Positions 14,673 to 63,582 of a DNA stretch of 64,000 nucleotides are shown piece by piece. The stretch covers positions 844-64,843 of the forward strand of contig SVNW01000009.1 in the NCBI GenBank assembly GCA_015066745.1, given 5' to 3'. The DNA comes from Ruminococcus sp. (GTDB taxonomy: Bacteria > Bacillota > Clostridia > Oscillospirales > Ruminococcaceae). The stretch's first letter is position 1, and each line of letters opens with the position of its first letter. Below the pieces are notes generated by a model that was not told where the DNA came from, searched no databases, and saw nothing but the letters and a program-made list of their open reading frames with translations. The position numbers and the translations under genes are program-made.

Positions 14673-16349
14673 TCAGGCGAGTTTAAGAACCATTGTCTTT
14701 GAAATTTCTTCTGTAACAGGTTTATTCCATACATATCCCTGTATGTAATCACAACCTATATCATTAAGAATTGACAGCTGTTCATCATCTTCAACACCTT
14801 CGGCAATTATCTCCATCTTCATAGTATGTCCCATTGAAATAATAGCACGGACAAATTCGTCAGCACCATCATCAAGAGCTATTCTGTCTATGAATGATTT
14901 GTCAATTTTAAGGAGCTGAACAGGTAACTTTGCAAGATAATTCAAAGAAGCATATCCTGTCCCGAAATCATCTATTGCAAGTGATATTCCCATATCACGA
15001 AGCTTATTAAGAACAACCACTGCATGTTCCACAGATGCAAGACATACTGACTCTGTAACTTCTATCTCAAGACATCTTGGCGGAAATCCTGTTTCTTCGA
15101 GAGCACGTCTGAGATCAGGAAGAAAACATTTGTCAAGCAGATGTGACGCTGAGATATTTATAGAAATAAGAATCTCTGAACCACATTTTTTTAACACTTC
15201 AGAAAAACTTTCCATTACATTTTTTATAACCCATTTGTCTATGTTAAGTATCATTCTGCTCTTTTCTGCGATGCTTATGAACTCACCGGGATACACAACA
15301 CGTCCGTATCGGTTTATACGTATAAGTGATTCAAACCCTCGTAATTTTCTTGTACGTAAATCATACTGTGGCTGAAACATCATAAAAAAACTGTCGTTTT
15401 CCAGAGCATCTCTTACAAGCTGTTCCTGCTCATGGCTTATACGAAGTCTGTTCATCATGCCTTCTCTGTATTCTGTGATCTTAGCTTTACCAAGTTCTTT
15501 TGAATGATACATCGCTGTATCTGCACAACTAAGCAGAGTAGCATAATCACGTCCGTCATGCGGATAGAATGCCACACCGAAACTAGCTGTTACTCTGAAC
15601 ATCTGAAACGGTAATCCCAGATTTTCATTTGTCATTCCGGAAATATCATTTATATGCCTTATAACATCTTGTTTACTACCGGTTGCTGGAATGATAAGTG
15701 CAAATTCATCTCCGCCTATTCTCACAAGATAATCATCAGGTGACAACTTCTTTTTCAATTCTTCCGCTACAAATTTCAGAGCATCATCTCCGATATTGTG
15801 ACCGGAAATATCATTTATCATCTTGAAGTCATCAAGATCAATAAATACAAGCGCAAACTCCTCATATTTTCTCATATATTCAATGATGACTTTCTGAAGA
15901 GCACGCATATTAGGCAAATCTGTCAATGCATCAGTATCAGCCTGAACCTGCAGTTTTTCGTTTATCTTTTCCATTTTGGTTATATATGAATACATAAAAC
16001 ACAGTGTAATAAAATTTACAATTACGACTGACATACCTGAAATCACCGTTGTCCGCCCATAACGTACAAGTGGCATACTCAGATGTATCATATGTATGGC
16101 ACATAAAACTCCAGCCATATAAAAACCACGTTTTTTATATGCTACAACCATCCATAGAAGCTGAAGACAATTTATTGTTGTTATCAATCCACAGATAGAA
16201 TTATAGTTGACCCCTGCAATCTGAATTTGCTTTGAGTCTATTACAGATGTTACTAAAAGAAGAATAAAGTATAAGCTAACATCAAATATCAAAATTAATC
16301 TATTAATTTTTGAAGAATTACTTACAGATATATACTTCATACAAACCAT
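14673..16349 (-). CDS. Membrane GGDEF-EAL protein (diguanylate cyclase/phosphodiesterase)
   Basis: 558 aa. About 5 N-terminal TM helices. Intact RIGGDEF. EAL signatures ESLIRI, DDFGTGYASL, EGVEDDEQ and QGYVWNKP. Confidence 0.8.
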   Translation of the reverse strand: MVCMKYISVSNSSKINRLILIFDVSLYFILLLVTSVIDSKQIQIAGVNYNSICGLITTINCLQLLWMVVAYKKRGFYMAGVLCAIHMIHLSMPLVRYGRTTVISGMSVVIVNFITLCFMYSYITKMEKINEKLQVQADTDALTDLPNMRALQKVIIEYMRKYEEFALVFIDLDDFKMINDISGHNIGDDALKFVAEELKKKLSPDDYLVRIGGDEFALIIPATGSKQDVIRHINDISGMTNENLGLPFQMFRVTASFGVAFYPHDGRDYATLLSCADTAMYHSKELGKAKITEYREGMMNRLRISHEQEQLVRDALENDSFFMMFQPQYDLRTRKLRGFESLIRINRYGRVVYPGEFISIAEKSRMILNIDKWVIKNVMESFSEVLKKCGSEILISINISASHLLDKCFLPDLRRALEETGFPPRCLEIEVTESVCLASVEHAVVVLNKLRDMGISLAIDDFGTGYASLNYLAKLPVQLLKIDKSFIDRIALDDGADEFVRAIISMGHTMKMEIIAEGVEDDEQLSILNDIGCDYIQGYVWNKPVTEEISKTMVLKLA

Positions 16350-29184: not shown

Positions 29185-30363
29185 TTATTTTACGGCTTCT
29201 TTAAGAGCATCAACCATATCTGTCTTTTCCCATGCAACGTTAAGATCTTCACGTCCCATATGTCCATAAGCAGCAAGCTTTCTGTACTGAGGTTTTCTAA
29301 GGTCAAGCTTTTCGATTATAGCTGCAGGTCTGAGATCAAATACCTTTGAAACTGCTTCTGATATCTTTTCTTCTGATACCTTTCCTGTTCCGAATGTATC
29401 AACAAGAACTGATACAGGTTTTGCGACACCTATCGCATATGCAAGCTGTACTTCACACTTATCTGCAAGTCCTGCTGCTACAACATTCTTTGCAACATAA
29501 CGTGCTGCGTATGCTGCTGAACGGTCAACCTTGGTCGGATCCTTTCCTGAGAATGCACCGCCGCCATGTCTTGAATATCCGCCATAAGTATCAACTATTA
29601 TCTTTCTTCCTGTAAGACCACTGTCACCCTGAGGACCGCCTATTACAAATCTGCCTGTCGGATTGATATAGTATTTTGTATTTTCATCAAGAAGTTCTGC
29701 AGGAATTACAGGCTTTATTACAAATTCCATAACATCTTTTCTTACATCTTCAAGTGAAACAGCAGCCGAGTGCTGTGTAGAAATTACAACTGCATCCACT
29801 CTTACAGGCTTGTCTCCGTCATATTCAACTGTAACCTGTGATTTTCCGTCAGGTCTGAGATATACCAGTGTACCGTTCTTTCTTACTTCTGTAAGACGCA
29901 TTGTAAGCTTGTGAGCAAGTGAGATAGGCATAGGCATAAGTTCTTTGGTTTCATTACAAGCGTAACCAAACATCATACCCTGGTCGCCTGCACCGATAGC
30001 ATCTGCGTTGTTAGCACTTCCGTCTTTTGATTCAAGTGCTTCATTTACGCCCATTGCTATATCGCCTGACTGCTCGTCTATTGATGTGATAACAGAACAT
30101 GTATTTCCGTCAAATCCGAATTTAGCTCTGTCATAACCGATATCATTTACAACATCACGTGCAATTTTCGGAATGTCAACATATGATTTTGTTGTGATTT
30201 CTCCCATGCAGAAAATCATACCTGTAGTAACAGTAGTTTCACAAGCAACTCTTGCTGTACTGTCCTTTTCAAGTATGGCATCAAGGATAGCGTCAGAGAT
30301 CTGATCGCATATTTTATCCGGATGTCCCTCTGTTACAGATTCGGAAGTAAAAAACTTTCTCAT
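29185..30363 (-). CDS. metK: S-adenosylmethionine synthase
   Basis: 392 aa. Motifs [24 protein letters not shown] and GGGAFSGKD. Confidence 0.95.
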
Positions 30364-30417: not shown

Positions 30418-30600
30418 AAAAAAGAAAACGTCCGGAAATTTTTTTAAAATCTCCGAACGTATGAATTCATCACATGAATAAATTCCTCATCTTTCGGACT
30501 TTTTCCGCAGGATTTAGCACCTTCACCGGATATATGATCCGATCAGGTTGCCGGGCTTCAAAGGACCTGGTTCCTCCACCACTCTTGATAAGGCGATTCT
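30418..30600 (-). promoter_or_regulatory. SAM-I (S-box) riboswitch with its terminator, metK leader
   Basis: Minus strand reads CCTTATCAAGAGTGGTGGAGGAACCAGGTCCTTTGAAGCCCGGCAACCTGATCGG...GGTGAAGGTGCTAAATCCTGCGGAAAAAGTCCGAAAGATGAGGAA, matching the S-box core. It is followed by ACGTTCGGA...TCCGGACGT and a U-run (30418..30460). Confidence 0.9.
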
Positions 30601-46000: not shown

Positions 46001-46073
46001 CCGTTTTTGTTTTTCTTAAACTTCCTTTTTAAATGAATTCATTTAATTTAACAATAAATATATTTATATTAAT

Positions 46074-46104
46074 ATTATATCAAAAAAAAAAAAAAAAAAA
46101 TCAA
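46074..46104 (-). promoter_or_regulatory. Candidate promoter with a T19 homopolymer as spacer
   Basis: Minus strand TTGATT(T17)GA-TATAAT, with TGA giving an extended -10. The A19 run on the plus strand is 46082..46100, 82-100 nt upstream of the 131-aa ORF. Confidence 0.5.
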
Positions 46105-46170
46105 TATGCATATCAACTAATATTTAAACAAAAAAACTATTTAAAAGAACAACAATTCTTGTATAATATT

Positions 46171-47680: not shown

Positions 47681-50600
47681 TTATTTACAATAATCAGCTG
47701 AAAGATTATACAGTATTTTACCTGGGGTACTTGCTTGTTTATTGACACAATTTTTTATTTCGTTTATATCGCTATCTGTTATTTTTCCATCAAAATTTAT
47801 ATCTCCACAAGAAAGAATATTTATATCAATTGTTTTATTATTTTTATAATTTTTTAATGTAGTATAATCTGCTGAAGTAATCCTATGATCTTGATTTACA
47901 TCTCCTATGAACTTATATATACAATCTTTCTGTCCACCATTGCCTGTTTTATCTTCCCAATATTTATCAAAATGAGTACAGTATATTGATTTTCTTATTA
48001 ATTTTGCTATATCAGGATATGCACTACAAAGCGTTGATATACTTCCGCTTTTTGTTCGACTAACAAGATAATTATAGCACAATAACACTTTTTGAGCATG
48101 ATCTTTCAATGAATCAAATTTAATATTGCTTTCTGGGAACAAACTTTTCAACTGTTCGTTTATTTTTGAAGTATTAGTCGATGTTCCGCTCATTAATTCA
48201 GAAAACACCTCAACGCCTTTTCCTTTATATTCTTTTTCCAAAAGTTTATATAAAGAAAGATATACATCAAAAGACAAATCATGAATATATCCTTCGTTTA
48301 CATCTTCTTTATATATAAACCATGCATCATAAGAATTTAACGTTCTCACACCTTCAAGTAAATTTGAATTGCTATCATAAACCATATCTGAATAGAATAT
48401 TTTTCCGTTATCATTATACAATGGAACATTTCTATATACAAATCCAACTTCTCTTGCTAAAAATGATCTCATATTTACTTCACTGTCATCTGCATTATGA
48501 CAATAATTATTATCAAACTTATCATTTACATAGCAATGTGACAGTTCATGTGATACTCCAAAGAACAAAGATTGGTTTTTTACACTTTTCAAATACTGAG
48601 AAATAGCATTTGATGAATAGTTCATTTTTCTTATACCATCATCAAAAGAAACTCGTGTTGTACTCATATAATATGGATGATTTTTATCGTATACAATATA
48701 CAATCCTTTTGCATCATAATTTGAAACTTGCTTATATGCGTTTGATAAAAAATGCATGCTTGAAATATTAAATATAAGATTACTTCTGTCAATATCATTA
48801 TTCATATCAAAATCTTGCATATTATCTAAAAGTAAAGCAGTAATTTTAGGTCTATCTCCAACTTCTACTTTCACCCCTGATTTCTCCAACAATATTTCTG
48901 TAATCTCGACTGTTGTTTCTTTAGAAAGAGTATTGGTGTTTCTACCTAATCTTACCTGCAAACCACAATTTGTTCCAGATGAAATATCAACCAATGTTTC
49001 CAGATTTGCCTCATATAAGTTTGAACTTATTTTTTTTATCTCACCATTAAGAGCTGTCTTTTCATAGGCTTCTTTAAATCCGCTTGTACTTGGATTTCCA
49101 CTATAATACCCCGCATATATCTTTTCTAATGCCTCTATATTACTACTTCTGGCTTTGATTTTTATCTTAGCTGATACTATATCTTCTGTAACAGGAAAAT
49201 CTGTACTTCCATATGCTGTTGCATATCCACCGCTTTTAGCTGTTAATGATATCGATTTTTCTTTTACACTTACAACTGAGCCATTATCATCGCTCCAGTC
49301 TTTATGATACCAATTTAAAAAGTTAGTTTTGATTAAAGGTGTTTCAACCTTAAAAGAAATAATACTAACACTACCGCTTACAGAATCATCATTTTTACCA
49401 AATCTAATCTGATATAAATAATCACCAACAAAGTCCAGAGCAAAATCATATTCAATTATTGCATTATATACTCCATTATTTTCATACGATTCAACCACAT
49501 TACCTAACTTGTAATGAAATTGATTATTACTATAATAGTCATTTTCATTTCCATTTGCATCAATACTTACAAATCCAGAATATATATGATTTAAATTTTC
49601 TTTTACATTACTCTGTGCTTTTATAGTTATTTTTATTTTATTGTTTTTAATGTTATTATTGTGAATAACTGTATTATAAGCAGTGACATATGATTTTTTT
49701 CCTGAAGCAATCTCCATTTTCAATAAATTATTATATCTCTCCACCTTATTATCAGTTGAATCACTCCACTTTTTCATGCCCCAATTATTTATATTTGAAG
49801 ACTTATAACTAATCATCTTATCTTTTAATGCGGTTGTTGAAAATGAATCATAATCAAGTAATTTATATGTATTTTCTCCATATAAAACAGGGAAAAATTC
49901 AATACCCCTATCGTTGCACCATTTTTTTACATAATTGCTTTCACTATACACTTTTAATTTACTATTATCTAAACCATAAAAACTATTGTTAGCAATTGTT
50001 TTTACAGATAATGGAATGTAGATATAACCTAAAGGACATTCGCTAAAAGCATACGCCATTATATCTGTTACACCATCTACTAATGATACTGCACTTAATT
50101 TTGAACAATTATAAAAAGCGTTCTGTCCTATTTTCGTTATTTTATCTGTAAAAAAAACCTGTCTCAGATTAGACATATTACTTAAAGAATAATTACTTAC
50201 AGCTGTAACATTATCCTCAAATTCAACTCTCCATATAATATCACTATAAATCTCCCATGGTCTTTGTGTATATGTAAGACTACTATAGTTACTCATATTC
50301 TTTTTTATCTTCAACACACCACTGTTTATAGACCAACTATCATTATCAACTGATATAGTATTTAAATTTACAATATCAGTACCACTTATACGCATTTCAG
50401 TTACATCAATCTGACCACTTACTCTGTCATTATTTTTTCCAAGTCTGATTTGCAAGAAAAAATTTCCGACAGATTTTATGTTTGTTGTTAATTGCATTGT
50501 AGCATATGTATAGTCACCTGTAGTCTTTTTGTTTTTTACTGTAGCCTTATAATAATATATATCATCTTCTTTTTCTCCATTTTTTAAAACATATCCGCAA

Positions 50601-50947
50601 TATATATGATCTAAAAGTGAAGACTTTGTTGTAACAACATCAAAAATCATTGTCATATTATTAGAAGATTTCTCGTTTCTATAAATGTCACCGCCATATG
50701 ATGTTACATATGAATTATTGGCTTTTATTTGCATGAAGTTATCATAATTAATATTAACCTCACAGTCTCCGCCTTCATCTCCCCATAATTTTATACCCCA
50801 TCCCTGAAAATCAGTATACGTTTCAATATCTGAAGCATATATATGATTGTGATTATTTTCAACCACAAAGTTAATTTCTTCAAACCAATTAAACATTAAA
50901 ACAAATACCAAAAATAAAATAATTTTTTTAAAATTAATCTTTTTCAT
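47681..50947 (-). CDS. Large secreted multidomain dockerin protein (3 repeated beta-sandwich-like modules, BspA-type LRR, HExxH module, C-terminal dockerin)
   Basis: 1088 aa with a signal peptide. Three paralogous modules end in ...QIRLGKNNDRVSG / QIRFGKNDDSVSG / QVRLGRNTNTLS. LRR_5-like segment IGQNAFYNCSKLSAVSL...AYAFSEC. HELSH motif. Dockerin GDVNQDHRITSADY...GDINFDGKITDSDI. Confidence 0.7.
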   Translation of the reverse strand: MKKINFKKIILFLVFVLMFNWFEEINFVVENNHNHIYASDIETYTDFQGWGIKLWGDEGGDCEVNINYDNFMQIKANNSYVTSYGGDIYRNEKSSNNMTMIFDVVTTKSSLLDHIYCGYVLKNGEKEDDIYYYKATVKNKKTTGDYTYATMQLTTNIKSVGNFFLQIRLGKNNDRVSGQIDVTEMRISGTDIVNLNTISVDNDSWSINSGVLKIKKNMSNYSSLTYTQRPWEIYSDIIWRVEFEDNVTAVSNYSLSNMSNLRQVFFTDKITKIGQNAFYNCSKLSAVSLVDGVTDIMAYAFSECPLGYIYIPLSVKTIANNSFYGLDNSKLKVYSESNYVKKWCNDRGIEFFPVLYGENTYKLLDYDSFSTTALKDKMISYKSSNINNWGMKKWSDSTDNKVERYNNLLKMEIASGKKSYVTAYNTVIHNNNIKNNKIKITIKAQSNVKENLNHIYSGFVSIDANGNENDYYSNNQFHYKLGNVVESYENNGVYNAIIEYDFALDFVGDYLYQIRFGKNDDSVSGSVSIISFKVETPLIKTNFLNWYHKDWSDDNGSVVSVKEKSISLTAKSGGYATAYGSTDFPVTEDIVSAKIKIKARSSNIEALEKIYAGYYSGNPSTSGFKEAYEKTALNGEIKKISSNLYEANLETLVDISSGTNCGLQVRLGRNTNTLSKETTVEITEILLEKSGVKVEVGDRPKITALLLDNMQDFDMNNDIDRSNLIFNISSMHFLSNAYKQVSNYDAKGLYIVYDKNHPYYMSTTRVSFDDGIRKMNYSSNAISQYLKSVKNQSLFFGVSHELSHCYVNDKFDNNYCHNADDSEVNMRSFLAREVGFVYRNVPLYNDNGKIFYSDMVYDSNSNLLEGVRTLNSYDAWFIYKEDVNEGYIHDLSFDVYLSLYKLLEKEYKGKGVEVFSELMSGTSTNTSKINEQLKSLFPESNIKFDSLKDHAQKVLLCYNYLVSRTKSGSISTLCSAYPDIAKLIRKSIYCTHFDKYWEDKTGNGGQKDCIYKFIGDVNQDHRITSADYTTLKNYKNNKTIDINILSCGDINFDGKITDSDINEIKNCVNKQASTPGKILYNLSADYCK

Positions 50948-51166
50948 AAATTACTCCTTATATTTTTATAAATTTAACAACCAACTTATATATTATACTT
51001 ATTCAATTATATTTTGTCAATAATGAGCTAAAAAATTATATTAAAAATTTTAAATACAATATCCAAAAAAATATATTAATTTCAACTAAAAATATATAAT
51101 TAACAAAAAAATAAAACAGATTGACTGATTTTTACTACAAACAATCTGTTTTATTAAAATTATTAT

Positions 51167-52120
51167 TTAATTTATTTCATCATCAAGATACTTTTCAACT
51201 ATAAATTTAGGACGATTTTTAGTTTCAAGATATACCTTTCCGACATATTCACCTATAACACCTATTGCAAAAAGCTGTAATCCGCCTATGGTCCATATAG
51301 ATAACATTGTTGATGTCCAGCCTGCCACTGTATGACCTGTAAAATGTCTTATCAAAGAATAAATAAGCATTATTATACTGATTGCAAAGATCGCTATTCC
51401 TAAAGCACTTATCCATTTAATAGGCTTCATAGACAATGATGTTATGCCTTCCCAGGCAAAAGCAAGCATTTTTTTCAAAGGATACTTTGATTCTCCTGCA
51501 AGTCGCTCACGACGTTCATAGTATACTGTATCACTTTTATACCCTATCATCGGAACTATTCCTCTTAAAAAGAGATTTACTTCTCCGAATTCCTCCAACC
51601 TGTTCAAAGCTCTGCTACTCATCAGACGATAATCCGCATGATTGAAAACAACATCTGCGCCCATTGCTTTCATAATCTTGTAAAAACTTTCTGCTGTAAA
51701 CTTTTTAAAAAATGTATCTGTATCCCTTGCACTTCTGACACCGTAAACGACATCACAGCCTTCATCGTAACATTTTACCATTTCATCAATTGCATTTATA
51801 TCGTCCTGCAAATCGGCGTCAAGAGAAATCGTAATATCACATTTATCCTTTACTGTCATAAGACCTGCCAGCAGTGCATTCTGATGCCCTCTGTTACGTG
51901 AAAGTTTTACCCCCTGAAAAATCTTATCTTCATTATGCAAAGAAGATATTATAGTCCATGTAGTATCTCTGGAACCATCATCTACAAAAACAATGCGACT
52001 ATCAGAAGAAATAATATTTTTTTCAATCAGATCTTTCATTTTCTTTTTTAACTGTTTTGAAGTGTCCGCCAACACTTCCTGTTCATTATAACATGGAACT
52101 ACCAGATAAAGTGTACTCAT
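51167..52120 (-). CDS. GT2 polyprenol-phosphate glycosyltransferase (GtrB/CsbB-like)
   Basis: 317 aa. LVVPCYNEQE, DDGSRD and DADLQDD motifs, plus two C-terminal TMs. Paralog of 31793..32761. Confidence 0.85.
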   Translation of the reverse strand: MSTLYLVVPCYNEQEVLADTSKQLKKKMKDLIEKNIISSDSRIVFVDDGSRDTTWTIISSLHNEDKIFQGVKLSRNRGHQNALLAGLMTVKDKCDITISLDADLQDDINAIDEMVKCYDEGCDVVYGVRSARDTDTFFKKFTAESFYKIMKAMGADVVFNHADYRLMSSRALNRLEEFGEVNLFLRGIVPMIGYKSDTVYYERRERLAGESKYPLKKMLAFAWEGITSLSMKPIKWISALGIAIFAISIIMLIYSLIRHFTGHTVAGWTSTMLSIWTIGGLQLFAIGVIGEYVGKVYLETKNRPKFIVEKYLDDEIN

Positions 52121-54793: not shown

Positions 54794-55170
54794 TTACAAG
54801 CACCTCTTAATATTTCAATTTAAAAAAACATACATACGTTTTATTATAACACACATTTTCAGTGATTACAATATATTTTAACTAAATTTAATATTATATC
54901 CCCTATTACACTATACCATTATTCACCACTTATCATGTTTTGTATTCAATATTTTTACAAAAAGGTTTTACTAAAACCTCCTATATACAATACTTTTTAT
55001 CACGATAAAAAGCTACAAAAAATTTTAAAAAATTTTTCTCTACTCTATTTATTCGTATCAACTCCACAAAATGTGACACTTAATAAAAAATATTTTTTTC
55101 ATATTGACTATTTTCGCTTTCTGAATTATTATAGTAGTATAAAAAATTTATGATAAAGGGGGATTTTTTT

Positions 55171-56238
55171 ATGAATGCAGTACTTGCACCATTTTTTACA
55201 GCACTTTCCCTGTTTTCCTCCCAACCCTCAGACACTGACAGTCTGCCTGACGGCTTTCTTATGTACCATTCGTACTCGTCATACGAAGCCCGTGACAGCA
55301 GGCTCTATGTGTACAATACAGGGAACAGCGAAAAAATCTGTATAAACGACTGCGTTGAAAACATCTATAATCTCATGAACGGTGACTTCGGTTCCTCACC
55401 TTATGACATTGTTTTTATGGGAATGACCGCAAATAATGAAAATGCGGGCTGGGACATATTTCGCTTCAATATCATAACAAAAGAGCTTATAAATCTCACA
55501 AACCAGAGTGATCTGCGTGAAGAGGACGTAAAATTTTCACCATCAGGAAACAGCGTTGTTTTCAAAAGAGGAAAATGGAATCATCAGTATGACACCATGC
55601 AGTATGATATACATATATTAGACTTAAAAAGCGGTCAGATTTCTCAGATAACAGATGATATCCCGGAAGATTCCATGCCGTATTTTTCTGATGACGGCAA
55701 CAAATTGTACTATATGAAAGGAACAGGAAAAGGAGCAGGGATATACAGTTATGATATTTCTTCAAAAAAAGAAACACCGATATATATTGACGAAACTGTC
55801 ATGTCGTACTACCCTGTAGTATACAAAAATTTTCTCTTTTTTACCCGTCATGTATCAGAGGAAAATATGAACGACTGCATATACCGCATAGATACAGATA
55901 CTATGAAAGCAGATATTATGGATTTTTGTACACCCGATACAAATTTTTCAGACCCTGCACCGATAGATGAAAACAACATTATATACAGTTCTACTACAAA
56001 CGGCTCATACGACCTTTTTGTAAGACAGGATAATACCGTATCAGAACTAAGTATGCTAAATACACCTTTCCACGAACTTGGAGCGGTATTTTACAACGGA
56101 CGTACCACACTTATAGAAAACTTTACTTCCATGATGCTTGCAAAAACAGATGACACTAAAGAATACTATGATATAAATTCAGACGGAATAATCAATATAT
56201 CTGATTATTGTCTTATGAAAAATTATATATACTACTGA
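55171..56238 (+). CDS. TolB-like beta-propeller (PD40 repeat) protein with a single C-terminal dockerin-like repeat
   Basis: Start placed at MNAVLAPFF (AAAGGGGGA RBS). PD40-like segments (FSPSGNSVVF, YFSDDGNKLYY). C-terminal DINSDGIINISDYCLMKNYI. Confidence 0.6.
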   Translation: MNAVLAPFFTALSLFSSQPSDTDSLPDGFLMYHSYSSYEARDSRLYVYNTGNSEKICINDCVENIYNLMNGDFGSSPYDIVFMGMTANNENAGWDIFRFNIITKELINLTNQSDLREEDVKFSPSGNSVVFKRGKWNHQYDTMQYDIHILDLKSGQISQITDDIPEDSMPYFSDDGNKLYYMKGTGKGAGIYSYDISSKKETPIYIDETVMSYYPVVYKNFLFFTRHVSEENMNDCIYRIDTDTMKADIMDFCTPDTNFSDPAPIDENNIIYSSTTNGSYDLFVRQDNTVSELSMLNTPFHELGAVFYNGRTTLIENFTSMMLAKTDDTKEYYDINSDGIINISDYCLMKNYIYY

Positions 56239-56254: not shown

Positions 56255-58444
56255 ATGATAAAGTATAACGAAAAAAACAGACTTTTCAAACTCTCTACCG
56301 CTGATATGACATACGCTATAAAGATAGCACCGGGAAATTATGTTGCACATGTCTACTTTGGCAAAGAAATCCCTGACGAAGACCTAACCTGGCTTCTCAG
56401 ACTTGACGAAAACCCTTTCACACCCGAAACAAATGCACGTGATAAAGCAGTCTATATGGATACGCTTCCTTTTGAATATCCGTGTCTTGGTACAGGAGAT
56501 TTTCGTGAACACGCATTTTCTGTTCTTGACAAGGACGGTATGTCAACTGTTGACCTCAGATACAAGTCACATATCATATATAACGGCAAACCGAAGCTAA
56601 AAGGCCTCCCTGCAACATTTGCCGATGAAAACAAGGCACAGACCCTTGAAATAACCTGTGTTGACGAATATTGCGGTATCGAAGTTGTCCTCATATACAG
56701 CGTAATAGAAAACTACAGCTCAGTAATCAGAAGTGTCCGCATAAAAAATAACAGCACAAACCCTGTAAACATAACAAGAGCAATGTCAATGGCACTGCAA
56801 CTTGACTCTGACAAATATGATATGCATACTTTCTACGGTTCATGGGCAAGAGAAAGGCACTTGGAACGCTCAAAACTTCACCACGGAAAACAGAGCATAG
56901 ACAGTTTAAGAGGTGAAAGCTCACATCAGCACAATCCGTTTTTTATGCTAGTCAGCCATACAGCCGATGAAAAGCAAGGGGAAGCATACGGTTTTTCACT
57001 TGTTTATTCGGGAAATTTCTTTGCGCAGGCAGAAGTTACACAGCACTCAAAAACAGGTGTAACTATGGGTATAAACTATGTTGATTTTAACTGGCTTCTT
57101 GAAGAAGGCGAAGAATTTCAGACTCCCGAAGTTGTGATGGTTTACTCCTCATCGGGTATAGGAAATATGTCACGTACATACCATGACCTTTACAGAAACC
57201 ACCTTATCAGAAGCAAATTTAAAAATACACGCAGACCCGTACTTATAAACAACTGGGAAGCAACATACTTTGACTTTAACTATGAAAAACTCCTTAACAT
57301 AGCCAGAGATGCCTCCGAACTCGGTATAGAAATGCTTGTTATGGACGACGGTTGGTTCGGACATCGTGACAGCGACAACTCTAGCCTCGGCGACTGGTTT
57401 GTTTATGAAAAGAAACTTTCACCGGGTCTTCCTCAGCTTGTATCAGAGGTAAACAAACTCGGACTCAAGTTCGGTATATGGTTTGAACCTGAAATGATCT
57501 CTCCTGACAGTGAACTCTATAAAAAACACCCCGAATGGGCAATACAGGTAAAAGGCAGACCGCTTACCCTCTGTCGTGAGCAGTATGTACTCGACTACTC
57601 ACAAAAAGAAGTACGTGACTATATATACGAAATGCTCAGAAAAATACTGACAAGTGCAAATATCGAATATGTAAAATGGGACATGAACCGTCAGCTTACA
57701 GAAGCAGGTTCCTGTTTCCTCAGAGCAGACAGACAGCGTGAAATATGGCATCGCTATGTACTCGGCGTATATGAGATGATGGAACGCTTCACAACAGACT
57801 TCCCTGATATACTTCTTGAAAACTGTTCGGGAGGCGGTGCAAGATTTGACCCGGGTATGCTCTACTACAGCCCTCAGATATGGTGTTCTGACGATACTGA
57901 CGCAATAGAAAGACTGAAAATACAGTACGGAACTTCCATGTGCTATCCGCCGTCTGCAATAGGCGCACACGTAAGCGATTGTCCAAACCATTCCTGCGGT
58001 CGTATCACACCTTTTGAAACACGAGGCCATGTAGCCATGAGCGGAACATTCGGCTATGAACTTGATACCACTCGCATATCGGAAAATGACAGACAGATGA
58101 TAAAAGAACAGATAAAACAGTACAAAAAATACTGTCATCTCATCATTAACGGTGACCAGTACCGTTTGGGAAATGTATTTTCGGATATCTCATATGACGC
58201 ATGGCTTTTTATATCAAAAGATAAGACACAGGCGCTTCTCACCTATGTACAGGTACTTGCCAAAGCTAATGAACGCAGTAAGCGCATAAAACTTGACGGA
58301 CTAAATCCTGACTGGTACTATAAAAACGATGTAAATGACCTTGTTTTATCAGGTTCTGCACTTATGAACGGAGGTTTTAATTTTGAAAATCTCTGGGGTG
58401 ATTTTAAGAGCAAACAGGTTTATTTTACAAGGGTAGAAAAATAA
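56255..58444 (+). CDS. Alpha-galactosidase, GH36
   Basis: 729 aa. KWDMNR and ENCSGGGARFD catalytic-region signatures. Typical GH36 length. Confidence 0.9.
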   Translation: MIKYNEKNRLFKLSTADMTYAIKIAPGNYVAHVYFGKEIPDEDLTWLLRLDENPFTPETNARDKAVYMDTLPFEYPCLGTGDFREHAFSVLDKDGMSTVDLRYKSHIIYNGKPKLKGLPATFADENKAQTLEITCVDEYCGIEVVLIYSVIENYSSVIRSVRIKNNSTNPVNITRAMSMALQLDSDKYDMHTFYGSWARERHLERSKLHHGKQSIDSLRGESSHQHNPFFMLVSHTADEKQGEAYGFSLVYSGNFFAQAEVTQHSKTGVTMGINYVDFNWLLEEGEEFQTPEVVMVYSSSGIGNMSRTYHDLYRNHLIRSKFKNTRRPVLINNWEATYFDFNYEKLLNIARDASELGIEMLVMDDGWFGHRDSDNSSLGDWFVYEKKLSPGLPQLVSEVNKLGLKFGIWFEPEMISPDSELYKKHPEWAIQVKGRPLTLCREQYVLDYSQKEVRDYIYEMLRKILTSANIEYVKWDMNRQLTEAGSCFLRADRQREIWHRYVLGVYEMMERFTTDFPDILLENCSGGGARFDPGMLYYSPQIWCSDDTDAIERLKIQYGTSMCYPPSAIGAHVSDCPNHSCGRITPFETRGHVAMSGTFGYELDTTRISENDRQMIKEQIKQYKKYCHLIINGDQYRLGNVFSDISYDAWLFISKDKTQALLTYVQVLAKANERSKRIKLDGLNPDWYYKNDVNDLVLSGSALMNGGFNFENLWGDFKSKQVYFTRVEK

Positions 58445-58471
58445 ATATTTGTGCAAAACGTATTAAAAATG

Positions 58472-58512
58472 ATATAAATTCGTGTATAAACTATACGAAT
58501 TTATATTTTTTT
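58472..58512 (+). terminator. Intrinsic terminator of the GH36 gene
   Basis: ATATAAATTCGTGTATA ... TATACGAATTTATAT followed by T7. Confidence 0.7.
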
Positions 58513-58524
58513 GATAAAATACTA

Positions 58525-58553
58525 TTGACTTTGTTTTGATTACATGGTATACT
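58525..58553 (+). promoter_or_regulatory. Near-consensus sigma-A promoter with an extended -10
   Basis: TTGACT-N17 (ending TGG)-TATACT. Predicted TSS around 58560. Confidence 0.65.
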
Positions 58554-58571
58554 AACATCAATGAAGGAAAT

Positions 58572-58661
58572 GAAACGTTTGAATAACGGCAAAGCTGCTG
58601 AAAGGTAGTGACGCAAAACTAAAGGGACTAAACTGAACGCAGTCTTAATAATGAACGTTTT
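58572..58661 (+). promoter_or_regulatory. c-di-GMP-I (GEMM-I) riboswitch aptamer
   Basis: GAAACGUU...GGCAAA-GCUGCU-GAAA-GGUAGU-GACGCAAAACUAAAGGGACUAAACUGAACGCAGUCUU...AACGUUU. This shows the diagnostic GGCAAA, a GAAA tetraloop hairpin, GACGCAAA, a P2 with a CUAAAC receptor-like bulge as in Vc2, and a closing P1 (AAACGUU/AACGUUU). Confidence 0.75.
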
Positions 58662-58985
58662 TCTAAAGTTCAGCAAATGTCAGCCAGTTGCCTGCTTTCG
58701 TGTCCGTACTGTTGAAGAACGGGTGTACAACCGTTCGGTAGATACAGATACAGGTTTAAAACAGTTTCTCTTCACAGCAAAAATGTTTTAATGAGGTTAT
58801 GAGCTCAGACTTTACATGAAAGTTTACGGTTTGTTTCCCCGAACGTTATGTCGTGGATGTTTCGAATCCTTTTTAAAATAATTTTCATTTGTCGCTAGTT
58901 TGACTATGACAGGATGGAGAGAATCCGGTTTATCTTCACAAATTTTTATTTACCGAAGAATAAGTCGGGTTCGGCTAAGGACCAT
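58662..58985 (+). ncRNA. ORF-less structured RNA body downstream of the riboswitch; possible group I intron-like core (unverified)
   Basis: No ORF of 60 aa or more on either strand, and no RBS-preceded small ORF. Many local hairpins. Strings resemble group I R/S elements: CUCAGACUUUACA at 58804..58816 and GAAGAAUAAGUCGG at 58955..58968. Confidence 0.35.
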
Positions 58986-59151
58986 CAAAAAAATCAATTC
59001 AAATTCCATTTAAAATCAAAAATTTTCCTTTCAAATTGACACAAACTTAATATTAATCAATTCCATTACAAACTTTTAAAAAATACTTTAATCTAAAAAT
59101 TCTACTTTCATTTTTAATTTTCCTAATATTATTTACCTGAAAAAAATAATG

Positions 59152-59195
59152 CAGACGGCTACGGATATTCCGTATGTCGTCTGTATTATTTTTAT
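59152..59195 (+). terminator. Intrinsic terminator ending the riboswitch-led transcript
   Basis: CAGACGGCTACGG-atatt-CCGTATGTCGTCTG followed by TATTATTTTTATT. Confidence 0.6.
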
Positions 59196-59223
59196 TGACT
59201 TTTACGCTGTTATATGATAAAAT
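59195..59223 (+). promoter_or_regulatory. Near-consensus sigma-A promoter for manA and the ROK kinase gene
   Basis: TTGACT-N17 (ending TGA)-TAAAAT, 30 nt upstream of the manA TTG start. Confidence 0.6.
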
Positions 59224-59253
59224 TATAGCAGATTTATGTAAAGGAGCGATTGC

Positions 59254-60216
59254 TTGAATATTCCATTATTGCTTACGCCCGCTTTTAAGGACTATATATG
59301 GGGCGGTACAAAGCTTCGTGACATTTTCAATAAAAAATGTAACTACGAAAAGATAGCAGAAAGCTGGGAGCTATCCTGTCACAAAGATGGAAACTCCATA
59401 ATTTCAAACGGCGAAGATGCAGGAAAAACACTTTCACAGTATATTGAAAAGTACGGAAAATCAGTACTTGGTACCAACTGCGAACGATTTGAAAACTTTC
59501 CTGTCCTCATAAAACTAATCGACGCAAGAGATAATCTTTCTGTACAGGTTCACCCCGATAACGAATATGCTCTTCGTGTTGAAGGTGAATACGGTAAAAC
59601 TGAAATGTGGTATATTGTTGATTGTGAAGAAGATGCTTCACTTTTGTATGGTTTTAAAAAAGAAATCTCAAAAGAAGAATTTTCTCAGCGTATAAAAAAC
59701 AACACTTTACTTGAAGTTACAAACAGCGTAAAAGTTAAAAAAGGTGATGTATTTTTTATAGAATCAGGAACGCTTCATGCGATAGGAAAAGGTATCCTGA
59801 TTGCAGAAATACAGCAAAACTCAAACACAACTTATCGTATATATGACTATAACAGAAAAGACAAGGACGGAAAGAGCCGTGAACTTCACATTGACAAAGC
59901 CTGCGAAGTAACAACTCTCTCTCCTGCTGCACCACCTGTAAATAACGAATTTACTGAATATAAAGGATATCGCACAAAACAACTTTCATCATGCGAATAC
60001 TTTACAACAGATATTGTTGAAACTGAAAGCTATGCATCGTTTTGTGTTTTGGAAAGTTCTTTTGAACATATACTGATACTTGACGGTAACTGCGTACTCG
60101 GAAGTGACCAGTACAAAGATATGCGTCTTGAAAAAGGCGACAGTGTATTTTTACCTGCAGGATACGGTGATTTTTATATCGATGGAAAATGCACATTTAT
60201 AAAAACAAAAATCTGA
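59254..60216 (+). CDS. manA: Mannose-6-phosphate isomerase, class I
   Basis: 320 aa. TTG start with an AAAGGAG RBS. LSVQVHPD, GKTEMWYIV and GTLHAIGKG...YRIYDYNR motifs. Confidence 0.85.
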   Translation: MNIPLLLTPAFKDYIWGGTKLRDIFNKKCNYEKIAESWELSCHKDGNSIISNGEDAGKTLSQYIEKYGKSVLGTNCERFENFPVLIKLIDARDNLSVQVHPDNEYALRVEGEYGKTEMWYIVDCEEDASLLYGFKKEISKEEFSQRIKNNTLLEVTNSVKVKKGDVFFIESGTLHAIGKGILIAEIQQNSNTTYRIYDYNRKDKDGKSRELHIDKACEVTTLSPAAPPVNNEFTEYKGYRTKQLSSCEYFTTDIVETESYASFCVLESSFEHILILDGNCVLGSDQYKDMRLEKGDSVFLPAGYGDFYIDGKCTFIKTKI

Positions 60217-60256: not shown

Positions 60257-61219
60257 ATGAAATATTATGTTGGAATTGACCTTGGCGGTACAAACATCTC
60301 AGCGGGTGTAGTAAACGAAAACTACGAAATAATAGCAAAGGCTTCTACAAAAACTAACTGTCCGAGACCTGCAAGTGAAATAGCAGAAGATATGGCAAAG
60401 ACAGCTATAGAAGCAGTTAAAAAAGCTGAACTCTCTATGAATGACATTGAATGGATCGGCATAGGTACTCCGGGTATCGCTGATAATGCAAACGGTAAGA
60501 TCGTTTATTCAAACAATCTTGGTTTTAACGATGTTCCTGTTGCAGACTACATTCACAAGCTTATTGACAAACCTGTATTTATCGAAAACGATGCAAATGC
60601 AGCTGCATACGGTGAATTTGTAGCCGGTGCTGCAAAGGGTGCTGTAAACGCTGTATGTATCACACTTGGAACAGGTGTAGGCGGTGGAATTATAATCGAC
60701 GGAAAAATATACTCAGGTTCAAACATGGCAGGTGCAGAACTCGGCCACACAATAATCGAGATGGACGGTCCACAGTGTACATGCGGACGTAAAGGCTGTT
60801 TTGAAGTTTATTCATCAGCTACAGGTCTTATCCGTATGACAAAGGAAGCAATGGAAACTGATAAAAACAGCATCATGTGGAAAATATCTGCTGAAAGAAA
60901 TAATAAGATAACTGCAAGAACATCATTTGACGCTATGCGTTCAGGCGATAAGACAGCTACAGAAGTAGTAAACAAATATATCAAATATCTCGCAGCAGGT
61001 ATCACAAACATAATAAACATATTCCAGCCTGATGTTCTCTGTATCGGTGGCGGTGTATGCAACGAAGGCGATCCGCTTCTTCTCCCTGTAAAAGACCTTG
61101 TAAAGAAAGAAGTTTACACAAGAACACTTGATAAAAATACTGAAATAGTGATCGCAAAACTCGGAAATGATGCCGGAATAATCGGTGCTGCATTCCTTGG
61201 AAACGCTTTGAGCAAATAA
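60257..61219 (+). CDS. glcK: ROK family glucokinase
   Basis: 320 aa. GIDLGGTN, ENDANAAAYGE and the ROK zinc motif CTCGRKGCFE. Confidence 0.85.
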   Translation: MKYYVGIDLGGTNISAGVVNENYEIIAKASTKTNCPRPASEIAEDMAKTAIEAVKKAELSMNDIEWIGIGTPGIADNANGKIVYSNNLGFNDVPVADYIHKLIDKPVFIENDANAAAYGEFVAGAAKGAVNAVCITLGTGVGGGIIIDGKIYSGSNMAGAELGHTIIEMDGPQCTCGRKGCFEVYSSATGLIRMTKEAMETDKNSIMWKISAERNNKITARTSFDAMRSGDKTATEVVNKYIKYLAAGITNIINIFQPDVLCIGGGVCNEGDPLLLPVKDLVKKEVYTRTLDKNTEIVIAKLGNDAGIIGAAFLGNALSK

Positions 61220-61350: not shown

Positions 61351-63582
61351 TTATTTTCCTCTGCGCTGACTTCTCATTTCAGCAGGAGTAAATCCTCTGT
61401 CTTTAAGATCTTTATAGAATTTTGCATCTATCTTTGCAAGTTTCTTTGCTTCTCTTGCTGACAAAACTCTCTTTGAAGATGTACTTGTAAGATCGTTTAC
61501 CGGAGGTTTACTGTAAAGTGCCTTACTTGAAGAAGGAACATAAGCAATAAAGTCCGGAATGATTTCTTCCTTCTCAGCCTTTGCTACTTCTTCAGGTGTC
61601 TTTATTCCTTCAGCGCCAAGCTGTCTTAATGCTTCTTCTATTGAGTCAATAGTTCCATGCTGTGCAGAATTAAATATAGATACAGGTTTTACGCTGTTAT
61701 TTGAAGGTGCTGTAGCAAATGAATTTTGCTGTTGTACAGGATTTACAAATGACTGAGGCTGAACCTGCGGTTTTACTGTATTGATAAATCCATTCTGCAT
61801 TGGCTGTGCTGACTGTGGTGTTACAGTGCCATATCCATTTTGCACCGGCTGTACAGGTGGTGTTACTGTACCATATCCGTTCTGCACCGGCTGTACAGGT
61901 GGTGTTACTGTACCATATCCGTTCTGCATCGGCTGTACAGGTGGTGTTACTGTACCATATCCGTTCTGCATCGGCTGTACTGGTGGTGTGATTGTATCAA
62001 ATCCACTCTGCATCGGCTGTACAGGTGATGTGATTGTATCAAATCCATTCTGCATCGGCTGTACTGGTGGTGTGATTGTATCAAATCCGTTCTGCACTGG
62101 CTGTACAGGTGGTGTGATTGTATCAAATCCACTCTGCATCGACTGTACAGGTGGTGTGATTGTATCAAATCCACTCTGCATCGGCTGTACTGGTGGTGTG
62201 ATTGTATCAAATCCACTCTGCATTGACTGTACAGGTGGCGGTGTAATTGTATCAAATCCACTGCCTATATTCTGTGCAGATGGTGGTGTAACTGTCTGGA
62301 AGCCATTTACTGTAGGTTCAAGCACACTTACAGATTCAAAAGAACTTACTGACGGAGTTACATCATCTGAAACAAGCTCATCAAATACAGATGGTGTAGA
62401 TGCATAACTGCCTATTGTATCTATAGAAGGTGTACTTGGTGTCTCAGGTATACTGAGTGTACCAAATTCATTTGAAAATCCTTCGTTGTTTATATCACTT
62501 ATAGACTTTGAACCTGATGTTGACACATCAACAAGCGGTATCTGATTTGAATAGAAAGATGAAGCATCTCCCATAAAAGCATTTGCCTGCTGTTGTACTT
62601 CTTCTTTCTTCTCTTCGATATCACTTATACTGTTATTGAACTGTGCAAGAATATCATTTGCAGCAGATAAGATATCTCCGGCTGTAGCTGTATTCTGTAC
62701 GTTGTTTGTCTGTTCCACAACAGGAGCAACGTCTTCTTTCTTCACCATAAACTGTGAAAGGAAATCATCATCTGATGACTTAGTAGCCACTGTACCGGCC
62801 TTACTTTCAGTTGGTTCCTGATTCATGTAATTCTGAGGCTGATACTGAGTATACTGTGGTACAACCTCCTGTACAGTTTCAGTTACAGGTGACTGATAAA
62901 CAGGTGCAGATTCCTGAACATTTTCTGCAGGTGACTGCGGTGTTGAACCATTGATACCATTTATATAACTTTCGTATGACGGAGCATATGAAAGTTTGAT
63001 ATCCGGATTTATCTGTTCCTGTGGGAATGTAAATGCCGACTTTACTACCGGCTGTACCGGTGGTGGTGTTATAGTAGCAGCTGGCTGTACCGGTTGCTGT
63101 GGCTGTGCCGGTTGCTGATATACCGACTGCTGTGGTGCCTGATATGACGGCTGTGTTGTCTGTTCCTGGGGACTCTGATAATTCTGGTAGTTCTGATAGC
63201 TCTGATAATTATTATTAATCGGTGCATTAGCTTCACCATTGTTCTTTGCTTCATAAGAAGCACGCTTTGAAGAAGCCTCTGATTCGCGATTTAAAACATA
63301 TTCTTCATATGTAGATTCTGAAACTATTCCCTGTTTCTTGGCACGTAAGAAGCGTTTCTTTTCTTCTTTTGCCATTCTTGCATCTTCACGATTACTTTCT
63401 CTTATCAACTTTGTTGCAAATACTTCCTTGCAACGATCACAGGTCAGATCAACTATGTCCTTCATTTCACCTTCTCTCGTGCAGTTCATGCCTTGCAGTC
63501 TAATTCTGCATCCAGTCGTTCTTTCATTGTCTGTGCCATGCACTACATTGTCTTTGTTTGAGCGAATTAATGTTATCGGCAT
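61351..63582 (-). CDS. Repeat-rich protein of unknown function (N-terminal Cys-containing region, Q/P/Y-rich linker, 14-aa tandem repeats, basic C-terminus)
   Basis: 743 aa with no signal peptide or TM. N-terminus has C...C...CDRC spacing. About 13 copies of (Q/N)(S/N)G(F/Y)(D/G)T(I/V)TPPVQP(M/V). Confidence 0.55.
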   Translation of the reverse strand: MPITLIRSNKDNVVHGTDNERTTGCRIRLQGMNCTREGEMKDIVDLTCDRCKEVFATKLIRESNREDARMAKEEKKRFLRAKKQGIVSESTYEEYVLNRESEASSKRASYEAKNNGEANAPINNNYQSYQNYQNYQSPQEQTTQPSYQAPQQSVYQQPAQPQQPVQPAATITPPPVQPVVKSAFTFPQEQINPDIKLSYAPSYESYINGINGSTPQSPAENVQESAPVYQSPVTETVQEVVPQYTQYQPQNYMNQEPTESKAGTVATKSSDDDFLSQFMVKKEDVAPVVEQTNNVQNTATAGDILSAANDILAQFNNSISDIEEKKEEVQQQANAFMGDASSFYSNQIPLVDVSTSGSKSISDINNEGFSNEFGTLSIPETPSTPSIDTIGSYASTPSVFDELVSDDVTPSVSSFESVSVLEPTVNGFQTVTPPSAQNIGSGFDTITPPPVQSMQSGFDTITPPVQPMQSGFDTITPPVQSMQSGFDTITPPVQPVQNGFDTITPPVQPMQNGFDTITSPVQPMQSGFDTITPPVQPMQNGYGTVTPPVQPMQNGYGTVTPPVQPVQNGYGTVTPPVQPVQNGYGTVTPQSAQPMQNGFINTVKPQVQPQSFVNPVQQQNSFATAPSNNSVKPVSIFNSAQHGTIDSIEEALRQLGAEGIKTPEEVAKAEKEEIIPDFIAYVPSSSKALYSKPPVNDLTSTSSKRVLSAREAKKLAKIDAKFYKDLKDRGFTPAEMRSQRRGK
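61787..62306. repeat. In-frame 42-bp tandem repeat, about 12-13 copies in two subfamilies
   Basis: Period-42 units visible directly. The GFDTITPPVQ(P/S)MQS subfamily has about 7 copies, the GYGTVTPPVQP(M/V)QN subfamily about 4, plus degenerate end copies. Confidence 0.9.

Follow-up and report, generated by a model that had tools for sequence, protein, structure and literature searches.

Which product does a cyclic di-GMP (c-di-GMP) riboswitch control when no gene follows it in its own transcription unit? This question is raised by a 64,000-nt stretch of the Ruminococcus sp. assembly GCA_015066745.1 (contig SVNW01000009.1, positions 844 to 64,843 of the forward strand; hereafter the window, whose numbering is used throughout), in which a c-di-GMP-I (GEMM-I) aptamer heads a transcription unit upstream of manA. 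An original prediction held that this riboswitch controls a non-coding RNA (ncRNA) rather than an mRNA. That proposal is supported here, given that the unit recurs in other species, that no open reading frame (ORF) within it is kept in frame, that manA has a promoter of its own, and that a further gene separates the RNA from manA in one homologue (L087). With its own promoter, its own terminator, no conserved coding potential and maintenance across species, the locus is very probably an autonomous c-di-GMP-sensing ncRNA. On balance, we also favor a fuller description, namely an autonomous ncRNA gene of ~635 nt whose front half would be a c-di-GMP sensor embedded in a larger fold, with the ligand choosing between forms of ~315 and ~635 nt. 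The c-di-GMP signal thus probably acts through a regulatory RNA, and not by switching a neighboring gene. The unit and its right-hand boundary consist of the following features:

58525..58553 (+): promoter of the RNA unit, TTGACT, 17-nt spacer, extended -10 element TGgTATACT (consensus scan)
58578..58695 (+): c-di-GMP-I (GEMM-I) aptamer, Rfam family RF01051
58976..59139 (+): G-depleted, unstructured tail of A, U and C only, preceding the terminator
59140..59196 (+): intrinsic terminator of the bidirectional type, with A-tract, G+C-rich stem (59151..59184) and U-tract
59195..59223 (+): manA promoter, TTGACT, 17-nt spacer, TAAAAT with TG (consensus scan), the right-hand boundary of the unit
59254..60216 (+): manA, TTG start (Pfam PMI_typeI_cat recorded for orthologues)
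60257..61219 (+): ROK kinase gene (Pfam ROK recorded for orthologues)

Homologous loci

Homologous loci were retrieved by a ManA search of one genome per GTDB species, which yielded 80 loci, all of them obtained via ManA. The closest ManA relative had 72% identity, so the window's own species is absent from these representatives; the ManA neighbors were uncultured Ruminococcus and Oscillospiraceae from rumen and gut. Using the intergenic region as the query for blastn and nhmmer, RNA homologues were recovered from five of the 80 loci (L001, L041, L073, L078 and L066; E 1e-47 to 1e-65), and three more (L082, L086 and L087) were obtained by protein search and exact-protein look-ups. Over the RNA region, L083, L084 and L085 are identical to L082, and L088 is identical to L087. 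The comparison set therefore comprised nine distinct sequences (the window plus eight) from roughly seven independent lineages, and the conservation in related genomes for which the original prediction had called was found across the whole unit (nhmmer E 1e-47 to 1e-188).

A regular expression for the GEMM-I core and nhmmer revealed no further copies in the other 75 ManA loci, and no other copy of the RNA unit was present within the 64-kb window. An exact-pattern scan of metagenome contigs returned one match, on a longer contig of the same species as L078, and a pattern scan of viral contigs returned none. Given the ManA-based retrieval, further copies may exist elsewhere in the homologue genomes. 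A separate 60-nt same-sense similarity links 58741..58802 (+) to 51670..51724 (-) (~74-80% identity, blastn E 3e-4); the latter segment falls inside the minus-strand ORF 51167..52120, and its similarity to the RNA core may be chance or a small duplication.

Boundaries and conservation of the transcription unit

The near-consensus extended -10 promoter that had been read ahead of the aptamer was recovered, with TTGACT at 58525, a 17-nt spacer and TATACT ending at 58553 with TG upstream. The consensus scan found six promoter-like matches where 4.9 were expected, which is not above chance alone. The significance of this promoter comes from its conservation at the same position, because TTGAC[AT]-N17-TGnTATACT occurs at an identical place in all nine sequences. 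Transcription is predicted to start at ~58560 and the RNA to span 58560..~59194 (~635 nt).

At the other end, the terminator claimed at 59152..59195 was likewise borne out. The region 59140..59200 folds at -31.2 kcal/mol (z -9.2), and a G+C-rich hairpin lies directly before a U-run in 59140..59196. Each homologue has, in the equivalent place, a terminator hairpin of differing sequence (-13 to -26 kcal/mol) followed by a U-run. The units range from 524 to 633 nt, and all nine share one plan of promoter, aptamer, G-poor tract and terminator.

Immediately beyond the terminator, the second promoter assigned to manA and the ROK kinase gene was found as described (TTGACT at 59195, 17-nt spacer, TAAAAT ending at 59223, with TG). 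All genomes examined retain it, even those of relatives with no copy of the RNA ahead of manA. In eight of the nine sequences, the RNA is the immediate upstream neighbor of manA and the ROK kinase gene, and the neighbors on its own upstream side vary (a GH36 alpha-galactosidase, a DUF2079 protein, a thioredoxin-reductase-like Pyr_redox_2 protein or a 554-aa ORF). In L087, the RNA terminator and manA are separated by a convergent HMGL-like gene of 463 aa, with the manA promoter retained, and in L001 and L066 an extra 250-300 nt with another promoter lie between the RNA and manA. The TTG start of manA, with AAAGGAG ahead of it, is shared by the window and at least four relatives.

The conservation profile was measured against L086 and more distant sequences, because the identity between the window and L082 reflects recombination. 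Identity to L086 was 90% over leader and aptamer, 86% over the 185 nt after the aptamer (58696..58880), 74% over 58881..58985, 69% over the tail and 60% over the terminator, and it was 69% over the manA coding sequence. By this measure, the RNA 3' of the aptamer is about as conserved as the aptamer itself and more so than the neighboring coding sequence.

Between the window (56255..59253) and L082 (1002..4000), the aga coding sequence and the RNA core are 98-99% identical (adjacent aga coding sequence, 98.4%), and rightward of ~58881 identity is 72-85% (manA, 81.7%). Judged from the alignment, this pattern is that of a recombination mosaic whose breakpoint matches the end of the compact RNA core. 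Near-identity of the core in this pair was considered as a signal of selection and rejected, as the aga coding sequence is equally identical and the fall at ~58881 is abrupt.

Coding potential

Every plus-strand ORF of at least 12 aa was compared across the nine sequences, and no ORF on either strand was kept in frame. The conserved small ORF that the original prediction had named as evidence against itself was thus not found. Its statement that no ORF of 60 aa or more is present downstream needs one correction; a 61-aa TTG-start ORF lies antisense to the promoter and aptamer at 58491..58676 (-), with neither start nor length conserved.

The peptides that do recur are explained by the RNA. A leader ORF (MKEMKRL..) overlaps the leader and aptamer, and it loses its ATG in L073 and L078 and is 6-8 aa long in L087 and L001. 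A 46-aa ORF at 58651..58791 shares only CQPVACFR, which is the translation of the 3' strand of aptamer helix P3 and the aptamer 3' flank, and the 'peptides' ..FTNFYLPK.. and ..SGLSSQIFIYR.. are two reading frames of a hairpin described below (H-C). A conserved plus-strand small ORF was rejected accordingly, the shared peptides being translations of the aptamer and of this covarying hairpin. On the minus strand, ORFs of 26-78 aa vary in start, stop and length, and the sole shared peptide is the antisense translation of the aptamer; a conserved antisense ORF or type I toxin of the kind opposite the Clostridioides difficile RNAs RCd11 and RCd12 was rejected because no opposite-strand ORF is conserved. 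A conserved ~58-aa ORF with a ribosome-binding site 3' of the aptamer, as in the C. difficile CD1980.2 type, was also absent from the nine sequences. Gene callers had annotated 78 aa at L082 3659..3895 and 46 aa at L085 3392..3532 inside the RNA unit, in frames that are not conserved. Both are probably artifacts of gene calling, to which the aptamer and the stop-poor G-free tract gave rise.

The c-di-GMP-I aptamer

The covariance-model search called for by the original prediction gave a match to RF01051 at 58578..58695 with 56.0 bits (gathering score 35; E 3e-8 over the whole window), the sole match in 64 kb. All eight homologues pass the same cut-off (51.8-58.5 bits). When 58400..59300 was searched against Rfam at E<=10, no other credible family appeared (noise of at most 22 bits vs cut-offs of 56-175).

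The aptamer core extends from GGCAAA (58588) to GCC (58692), and the motifs listed beforehand (GGCAAA, the GAAA-capped hairpin, GACGCAAA and the CUAAAC receptor side) were all located. P2 occupies 58594..58609 as GCUGCU-GAAA-GGUAGU, with two compensatory pairs across homologues, and is followed at 58610 by GACGCAAA. P3 combines the CUAAAC tetraloop-receptor side with a 44-nt distal extension, where the consensus has an insert of 13. This P2 sequence and GGGACUAAAC...AUGUCAGCC align to the RF01051 consensus with a posterior probability of ~1, so that both the GNRA loop and its receptor are present. The range first given for the aptamer, 58572..58661, was right in its location and too short at its 3' end, which lies at ~58692/58695; an end at 58661 drops the 3' strand of P3 because P3 holds the 44-nt insert.

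At the junction, three positions match invariant consensus positions, namely the G left unpaired in GGCAAA (58588), the A that follows GACGC and, within GCC, the first C (58691). We take these to be the ligand contacts G20, A47 and C92 in Vc2 numbering. L001 carries AGCAAA in place of GGCAAA (3075..3082), so that an A is aligned with the unpaired G that contacts the ligand. A G20A change at the equivalent position marks the cGAMP-selective GEMM-Ib riboswitches, and ligand specificity may therefore differ within this RNA family.

The closing P1 helix ascribed to the aptamer does not exist as a local helix. The flanks AAUAAC and CUGCUU cannot pair together, and both pair with distant segments instead, the 5' flank with 58844..58849 and the 3' flank with 58814..58823.

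Long-range fold of the RNA core

An RNAalifold consensus structure was calculated for the nine sequences. It contains 71 pairs, and 94.6% of its cells are standard pairs, compared with 37-45% when partners were slid by 1-3 columns. The elements outside the aptamer are as follows:

58560..58587 (+): 5' leader AAUGAAGGAAAUGAAACGUUUGAAUAAC, 5' strand of helix H-0; 28 nt, of which the first 23 are almost invariant
58694..58703 (+): 5' strand of helix H-A, GCUUUCGUGU; immediate 3' flank of the aptamer
58704..58754 (+): variable hairpin region inside H-A; sequence and length depend on the species, and single-sequence folds give a hairpin in each species tested
58755..58791 (+): conserved hairpin UUUAAAACA...UGUUUUAA (RNAalifold helix 9; 8 pairs, 82% of cells paired, one double-sided change)
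58793..58813 (+): hairpin GAGGUU/GACUUU (helix 10; 96% of cells paired)
58814..58823 (+): 3' strand of H-A, ACAUGAAAGU; compensatory changes in window/L082, L073/L078 and L066
58827..58841 (+): small hairpin CGG...CCG between H-A and H-0 (helix 11; 100% of cells paired)
58843..58874 (+): 3' strand of H-0, ACGUUAUGUCGUGGAUGUUUCGAAUCC, running into the U-tract 58870..58874 (helices 1 and 2; 92-96% of cells paired)
58888..58913 (+): poorly conserved hairpin UUUGUCGCUAGUUUGACUAUGACAGG, in the minimum free energy (MFE) and centroid folds of the window; 72-74% identity to L082 and L086
58921..58972 (+): hairpin H-C with conserved loop AAAUUUUUAUUU, in seven of nine sequences; L073 and L078 have a shorter hairpin instead

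Covariation, one of the proposed checks, was found in several elements. H-A keeps all ten of its pairs in all nine sequences, with three pairs changed on both sides; H-C has 20 pairs, nine with a double-sided change in at least one sequence (RNAalifold, seven sequences); and P2 has the two compensatory pairs noted above. The CGG...CCG hairpin is uninformative because it is essentially invariant. The hairpin at 58793..58813 holds an invariant AGCUC in its loop, and GAGCUC at 58801..58806 is palindromic.

H-0, a helix of ~24 bp, takes in the five bases that adjoin the aptamer on its 5' side, and at its end CC leads into the U-tract. In all nine sequences its duplex is predicted at -17.7 to -25.2 kcal/mol, whereas shuffled sequences gave -10 +/- 2.8 and 0-3 out of 300 did as well. 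All nine have at least three U after CC or UC at the end of the helix. Read directly from the sequences, the part of H-0 next to the aptamer compensates, as AUAAC/GUUAU in the window, UUAAC/GUUAA in L087, AUAC/GUAU in L066 and, re-registered, GAUAUAA/UUAUGUC in L001. Because the aptamer flanks pair with the partners of H-A and H-0, the ligand pocket sits at a multi-helix junction. In the consensus fold, this junction is what closes the 5' and 3' ends of a compact domain of ~315 nt.

A local terminator (GGAUGUUUCGAAUCC followed by U5, 58855..58874) was considered for the internal U-tract and rejected, since in most species its stem amounts to just 3-4 bp. Folded locally, the 3' segment yields structures that are weak (-4.6 to -11.2 kcal/mol) and inconsistent. 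As no consistent local hairpin abuts the U-tract, H-0 is the sole candidate for a terminator stem there.

Folding the RNA in successive lengths gave mutually exclusive pairings. Folded only through the aptamer 3' flank, the MFE structure pairs leader AUGAAGG with CUUUCGU in five of six species, a P1-like closure. With the next 120 nt added, H-A captures the 3' flank, and with 58843..58874 added, H-0 captures the leader. Enforcing AUGAAGG/CUUUCGU on the full core costs 6.6-15.5 kcal/mol, which we estimate to be within the binding energy of a ligand bound at pM to nM concentrations (based on the Kd of ~1 nM quoted in PMC3627812). The leader octamer GAAACGUU (58572..58579) and the internal CGAACGUU are near-copies, both able to pair with GAUGUUUCG; the near-copies and their partner lie at 58572..58579, 58840..58847 and 58856..58864. 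Such mimicry between segments is of the type expected for strand exchange in a switch.

The G-depleted tail

Between the structured part and the terminator, 150 nt (58984..59133) contain one G and 26 C. The tail has an MFE of -3.0 kcal/mol over 164 nt (z +1.1). In each of the nine sequences, the terminator is preceded at a distance of 0-12 nt by a tract of 78-170 nt that contains two G or fewer, so that composition is conserved and sequence is not. The near absence of G leaves almost no AUG, GUG or UUG, no Shine-Dalgarno motif (GGAGG), and UAA as the only stop codon. On the plus strand of the window, three tracts are this G-poor, the RNA tail included; the other two (50873..51020 and 46011..46137, +) lie upstream of minus-strand genes and are C-free in the sense of those genes. 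In composition only, the tail resembles a Rho-utilization (rut) site, being an unstructured, untranslated tract of at least ~80 nt with C well above G. A comparison of the tail with the 42 translation-initiation regions in the window using RNAduplex gave no convincing outlier.

Proposed mechanism and alternative explanations

These elements can be arranged into a switch. Binding of c-di-GMP at the junction would stabilize the segment of H-0 beside the pocket, standing in for P1; the zipped H-0 would then act as a long-range terminator at 58870..58878 and release the compact ~315-nt form. Without ligand, the leader would remain in the AUGAAGG/CUUUCGU helix, or the 3' strand would fold locally. 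Polymerase would then run through the tail to the strong terminator (~59190) and produce the ~635-nt form. The G-free tail, present in the long form only, would be the candidate effector, whether it acts as a single-stranded seed, offers a platform to a binding protein or loads Rho. The polarity could run either way, with the ligand favoring the short or the long form. Ligand-dependent isoform switching at the internal U-tract is put forward tentatively, as a model that may well prove wrong. If true, a riboswitch would gate a trans-acting RNA through a very long-range terminator, offering a direct handle on c-di-GMP control in fiber-degrading gut bacteria. A stronger version makes the aptamer an allosteric module of a larger regulatory RNA, in which two long-range helices replace P1 and the ligand-closed ~24-bp helix picks the ~315- or ~635-nt form. 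We consider this version doubtful, and equally doubtful its corollary that the pocket is completed only after the conserved 150-nt inserted domain has been transcribed. The tail could then seed pairing with Shine-Dalgarno-like targets, soak up an RNA-binding protein or let Rho enter, and the locus would represent a trans-acting RNA of gut and rumen Firmicutes that is gated by a second messenger and whose terminator stem spans ~285 nt.

Several observations weigh against the switch and, in part, against the ncRNA gene itself. A terminator with a ~270-nt loop would be unusual, the internal U-tract comprises a mere 3-6 U, and only two G-C pairs are found in the helix segment that immediately precedes it. 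Since the leader is invariant, the automatic alignment gives zero double-sided changes for H-0. With a z of -1.16, the core is unexceptional in its folding energy, so the case for structure has to be made entirely by comparison, and that comparison draws on a small sample of nine sequences from some seven independent lineages, in which the near-identical cores of the window and L082 stem from recombination and not from selection. Retrieval through ManA biases both the linkage of the RNA to manA and its apparent single copy. The best duplex between the tail and a translation-initiation region reached -24.4 kcal/mol (mean -14.1 +/- 4.0), with long loops. Transcript ends and termination at 58870..58878 are predictions from sequence.

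The main rival to ligand-dependent switching is a static c-di-GMP-binding RNA, always made at full length, that buffers or sponges the ligand or changes activity on binding it, with H-0 as a mere closing stem. Like many stable ncRNAs, the core has its 5' end paired with its 3' end, the short internal U-tract is partly paired with GAA of the leader, and such a role has been proposed for merRNA of Bdellovibrio (PMC3627812). A static RNA leaves the conserved, mutually exclusive pairings unexplained, as well as the conserved G-free tail and second terminator, and as a sponge it would need very high expression. We regard it as unlikely; if true, the locus would be a second candidate for a c-di-GMP-binding structural RNA. 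Less likely again is an ordinary long leader, through which the riboswitch would control the manA-ROK operon in cis by read-through of 59140..59196, tying c-di-GMP to the supply of mannose for exopolysaccharide synthesis. It would account for the RNA lying in the same orientation directly upstream of manA in eight of nine sequences while upstream neighbors differ, and for the terminator U-tail abutting the manA -35 element. This adjacency is inflated by retrieval through ManA, however, and it is broken by the convergent 463-aa gene in L087 and by the 250-300 nt and additional promoter in L001 and L066. Conservation of the terminator hairpin and U-run extends to all nine sequences, and a conserved extended -10 promoter serves manA itself, even where a genome lacks the RNA. 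No conserved ORF precedes 59140..59196 and no expression platform adjoins the aptamer, which is more than 450 nt from that terminator, making direct coupling between the two impossible.

Were the unit instead an unannotated small-protein gene under riboswitch control, it would have a precedent in the C. difficile 'orphan' riboswitches that precede 58-aa membrane proteins (bioRxiv 10.64898/2026.06.10.731418). ORFs of 39-51 aa with ..F(T/M)NFYLPK.. occur in four sequences, with a related ..FVTDFYQK.. ORF in L066, and gene callers placed spurious ORFs of 46-78 aa in the region. The shared peptide is, however, the translated hairpin H-C with its nine compensatory pairs; a 2-nt indel separates the window from L082, L087 and L041 are out of frame, the region is missing in L073 and L078, and the C-terminal halves show no relationship. 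A convincing Shine-Dalgarno motif is lacking, invariance in the conserved stretch is the same at all three codon positions, the tail is nearly free of start codons, and the leader ORF MKEMKRL.. overlaps the aptamer and has lost its start in L073 and L078. A small-protein gene is thus very improbable. Least credible of all is a decaying remnant, in which a downstream gene was lost and neutral sequence left behind. Poor conservation of the tail sequence (69% to L086) would suit such a history, but the post-aptamer core at 86% comes close to the aptamer at 90% and exceeds the manA coding sequence at 69%, the helices covary, and no lineage has lost its strand-specific G depletion or its terminator, even though the sequence turns over.

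Relation to known RNAs

To our knowledge, nearly all known c-di-GMP riboswitches act on their own mRNA, and cases that head a free-standing RNA gene are very few. The cases in point are merRNA, which still awaits proof of its function, and certain C. difficile loci, among them several that encode small proteins. The present aptamer resembles a canonical RF01051 riboswitch of a 5' untranslated region in its sequence, its P2/P3 architecture and a score well above the cut-off. It differs in having no local P1, no adjacent terminator or platform sequestering a ribosome-binding site, and no regulated ORF before the terminator.

In logic, the short/long switch proposed here is closest to EutX of Enterococcus and Rli55 of Listeria, compared by description only, which are reportedly ncRNAs regulated by B12 riboswitches (said to have been described by DebRoy in 2014 and Mellin in 2014, respectively). 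In both, a 5' riboswitch on an ORF-less transcript picks a short terminated or a long form, and the effector lies in the 3' part of the long form, where an ANTAR-binding dual hairpin sequesters EutV. Their terminator is a local hairpin beside the aptamer, whereas the candidate here is a helix spanning ~285 nt; ligand and aptamer class also differ, and the 3' part here is an unstructured G-free tract. An aptamer set inside a larger conserved RNA, with its flanks in long-range alternative pairings, recalls the tandem c-di-GMP-II aptamer and group I ribozyme of C. difficile, reportedly described by Lee et al. in 2010. That system has a class II aptamer and a group I intron, and no Rfam ribozyme or other family was found in 58696..59140 here.

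The merRNA of Bdellovibrio bacteriovorus is a 445-nt 'massively expressed riboswitch RNA' (Karunker et al. 2013, PMC3627812). Like the present RNA, it is an ncRNA of several hundred nucleotides with a c-di-GMP riboswitch, no conserved downstream ORF and a narrow lineage. Compared by description only, it belongs to another phylum and is defined by its extreme expression and proposed role as a ligand reservoir, and its description (PMC3627812) mentions no long-range closing helix, G-free tail or internal U-tract. In C. difficile, c-di-GMP-I riboswitches precede the antitoxin RNAs RCd11 and RCd12, and an orphan lies between CD2517 and CD2517.1 (PMC11477304, Table 1). These share with our locus the aptamer class, a Firmicute host and a position ahead of a non-coding RNA or of nothing annotated. 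The antitoxin RNAs are antisense to type I toxin genes, in contrast to our locus, which has no conserved opposite-strand ORF. Several C. difficile 'orphan' c-di-GMP-I riboswitches precede unannotated 58-aa proteins (10.64898/2026.06.10.731418), unlike the present unit, in which no ORF is kept in frame. A riboswitch-bearing ncRNA is therefore a rare but known kind; what is new is the placement of the aptamer within a larger conserved fold and the compositionally constrained tail. The present locus adds a conserved case with clear boundaries, from uncultured Oscillospiraceae of the rumen and gut, and its architecture can be tested.

Other features of the window

Two c-di-GMP turnover enzymes had been noted in the same window, and two proteins with GGDEF and EAL domains were indeed found. 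They and the remaining features are as follows:

4779..7202 (-): GGDEF+EAL protein
14673..16349 (-): GGDEF+EAL protein
30484..30594 (-): SAM-I riboswitch (RF00162, 74.5 bits vs a cut-off of 44.4), upstream of the minus-strand ORF 29185..30363
47681..50947 (-): 1088-aa protein with a Pfam Dockerin_1 domain and BspA-type leucine-rich repeats
55150..56238 (+): product with a C-terminus that is dockerin-like by eye
61351..63582 (-): 743-aa ORF in which a 13-14-aa unit (GFDTITPPVQPMQS and variants) is repeated in tandem ~14 times

No Pfam family is recorded for orthologues of the 743-aa ORF. As far as can be judged from these domains, the dockerin features fit a cellulosome-type, Ruminococcus-like organism.

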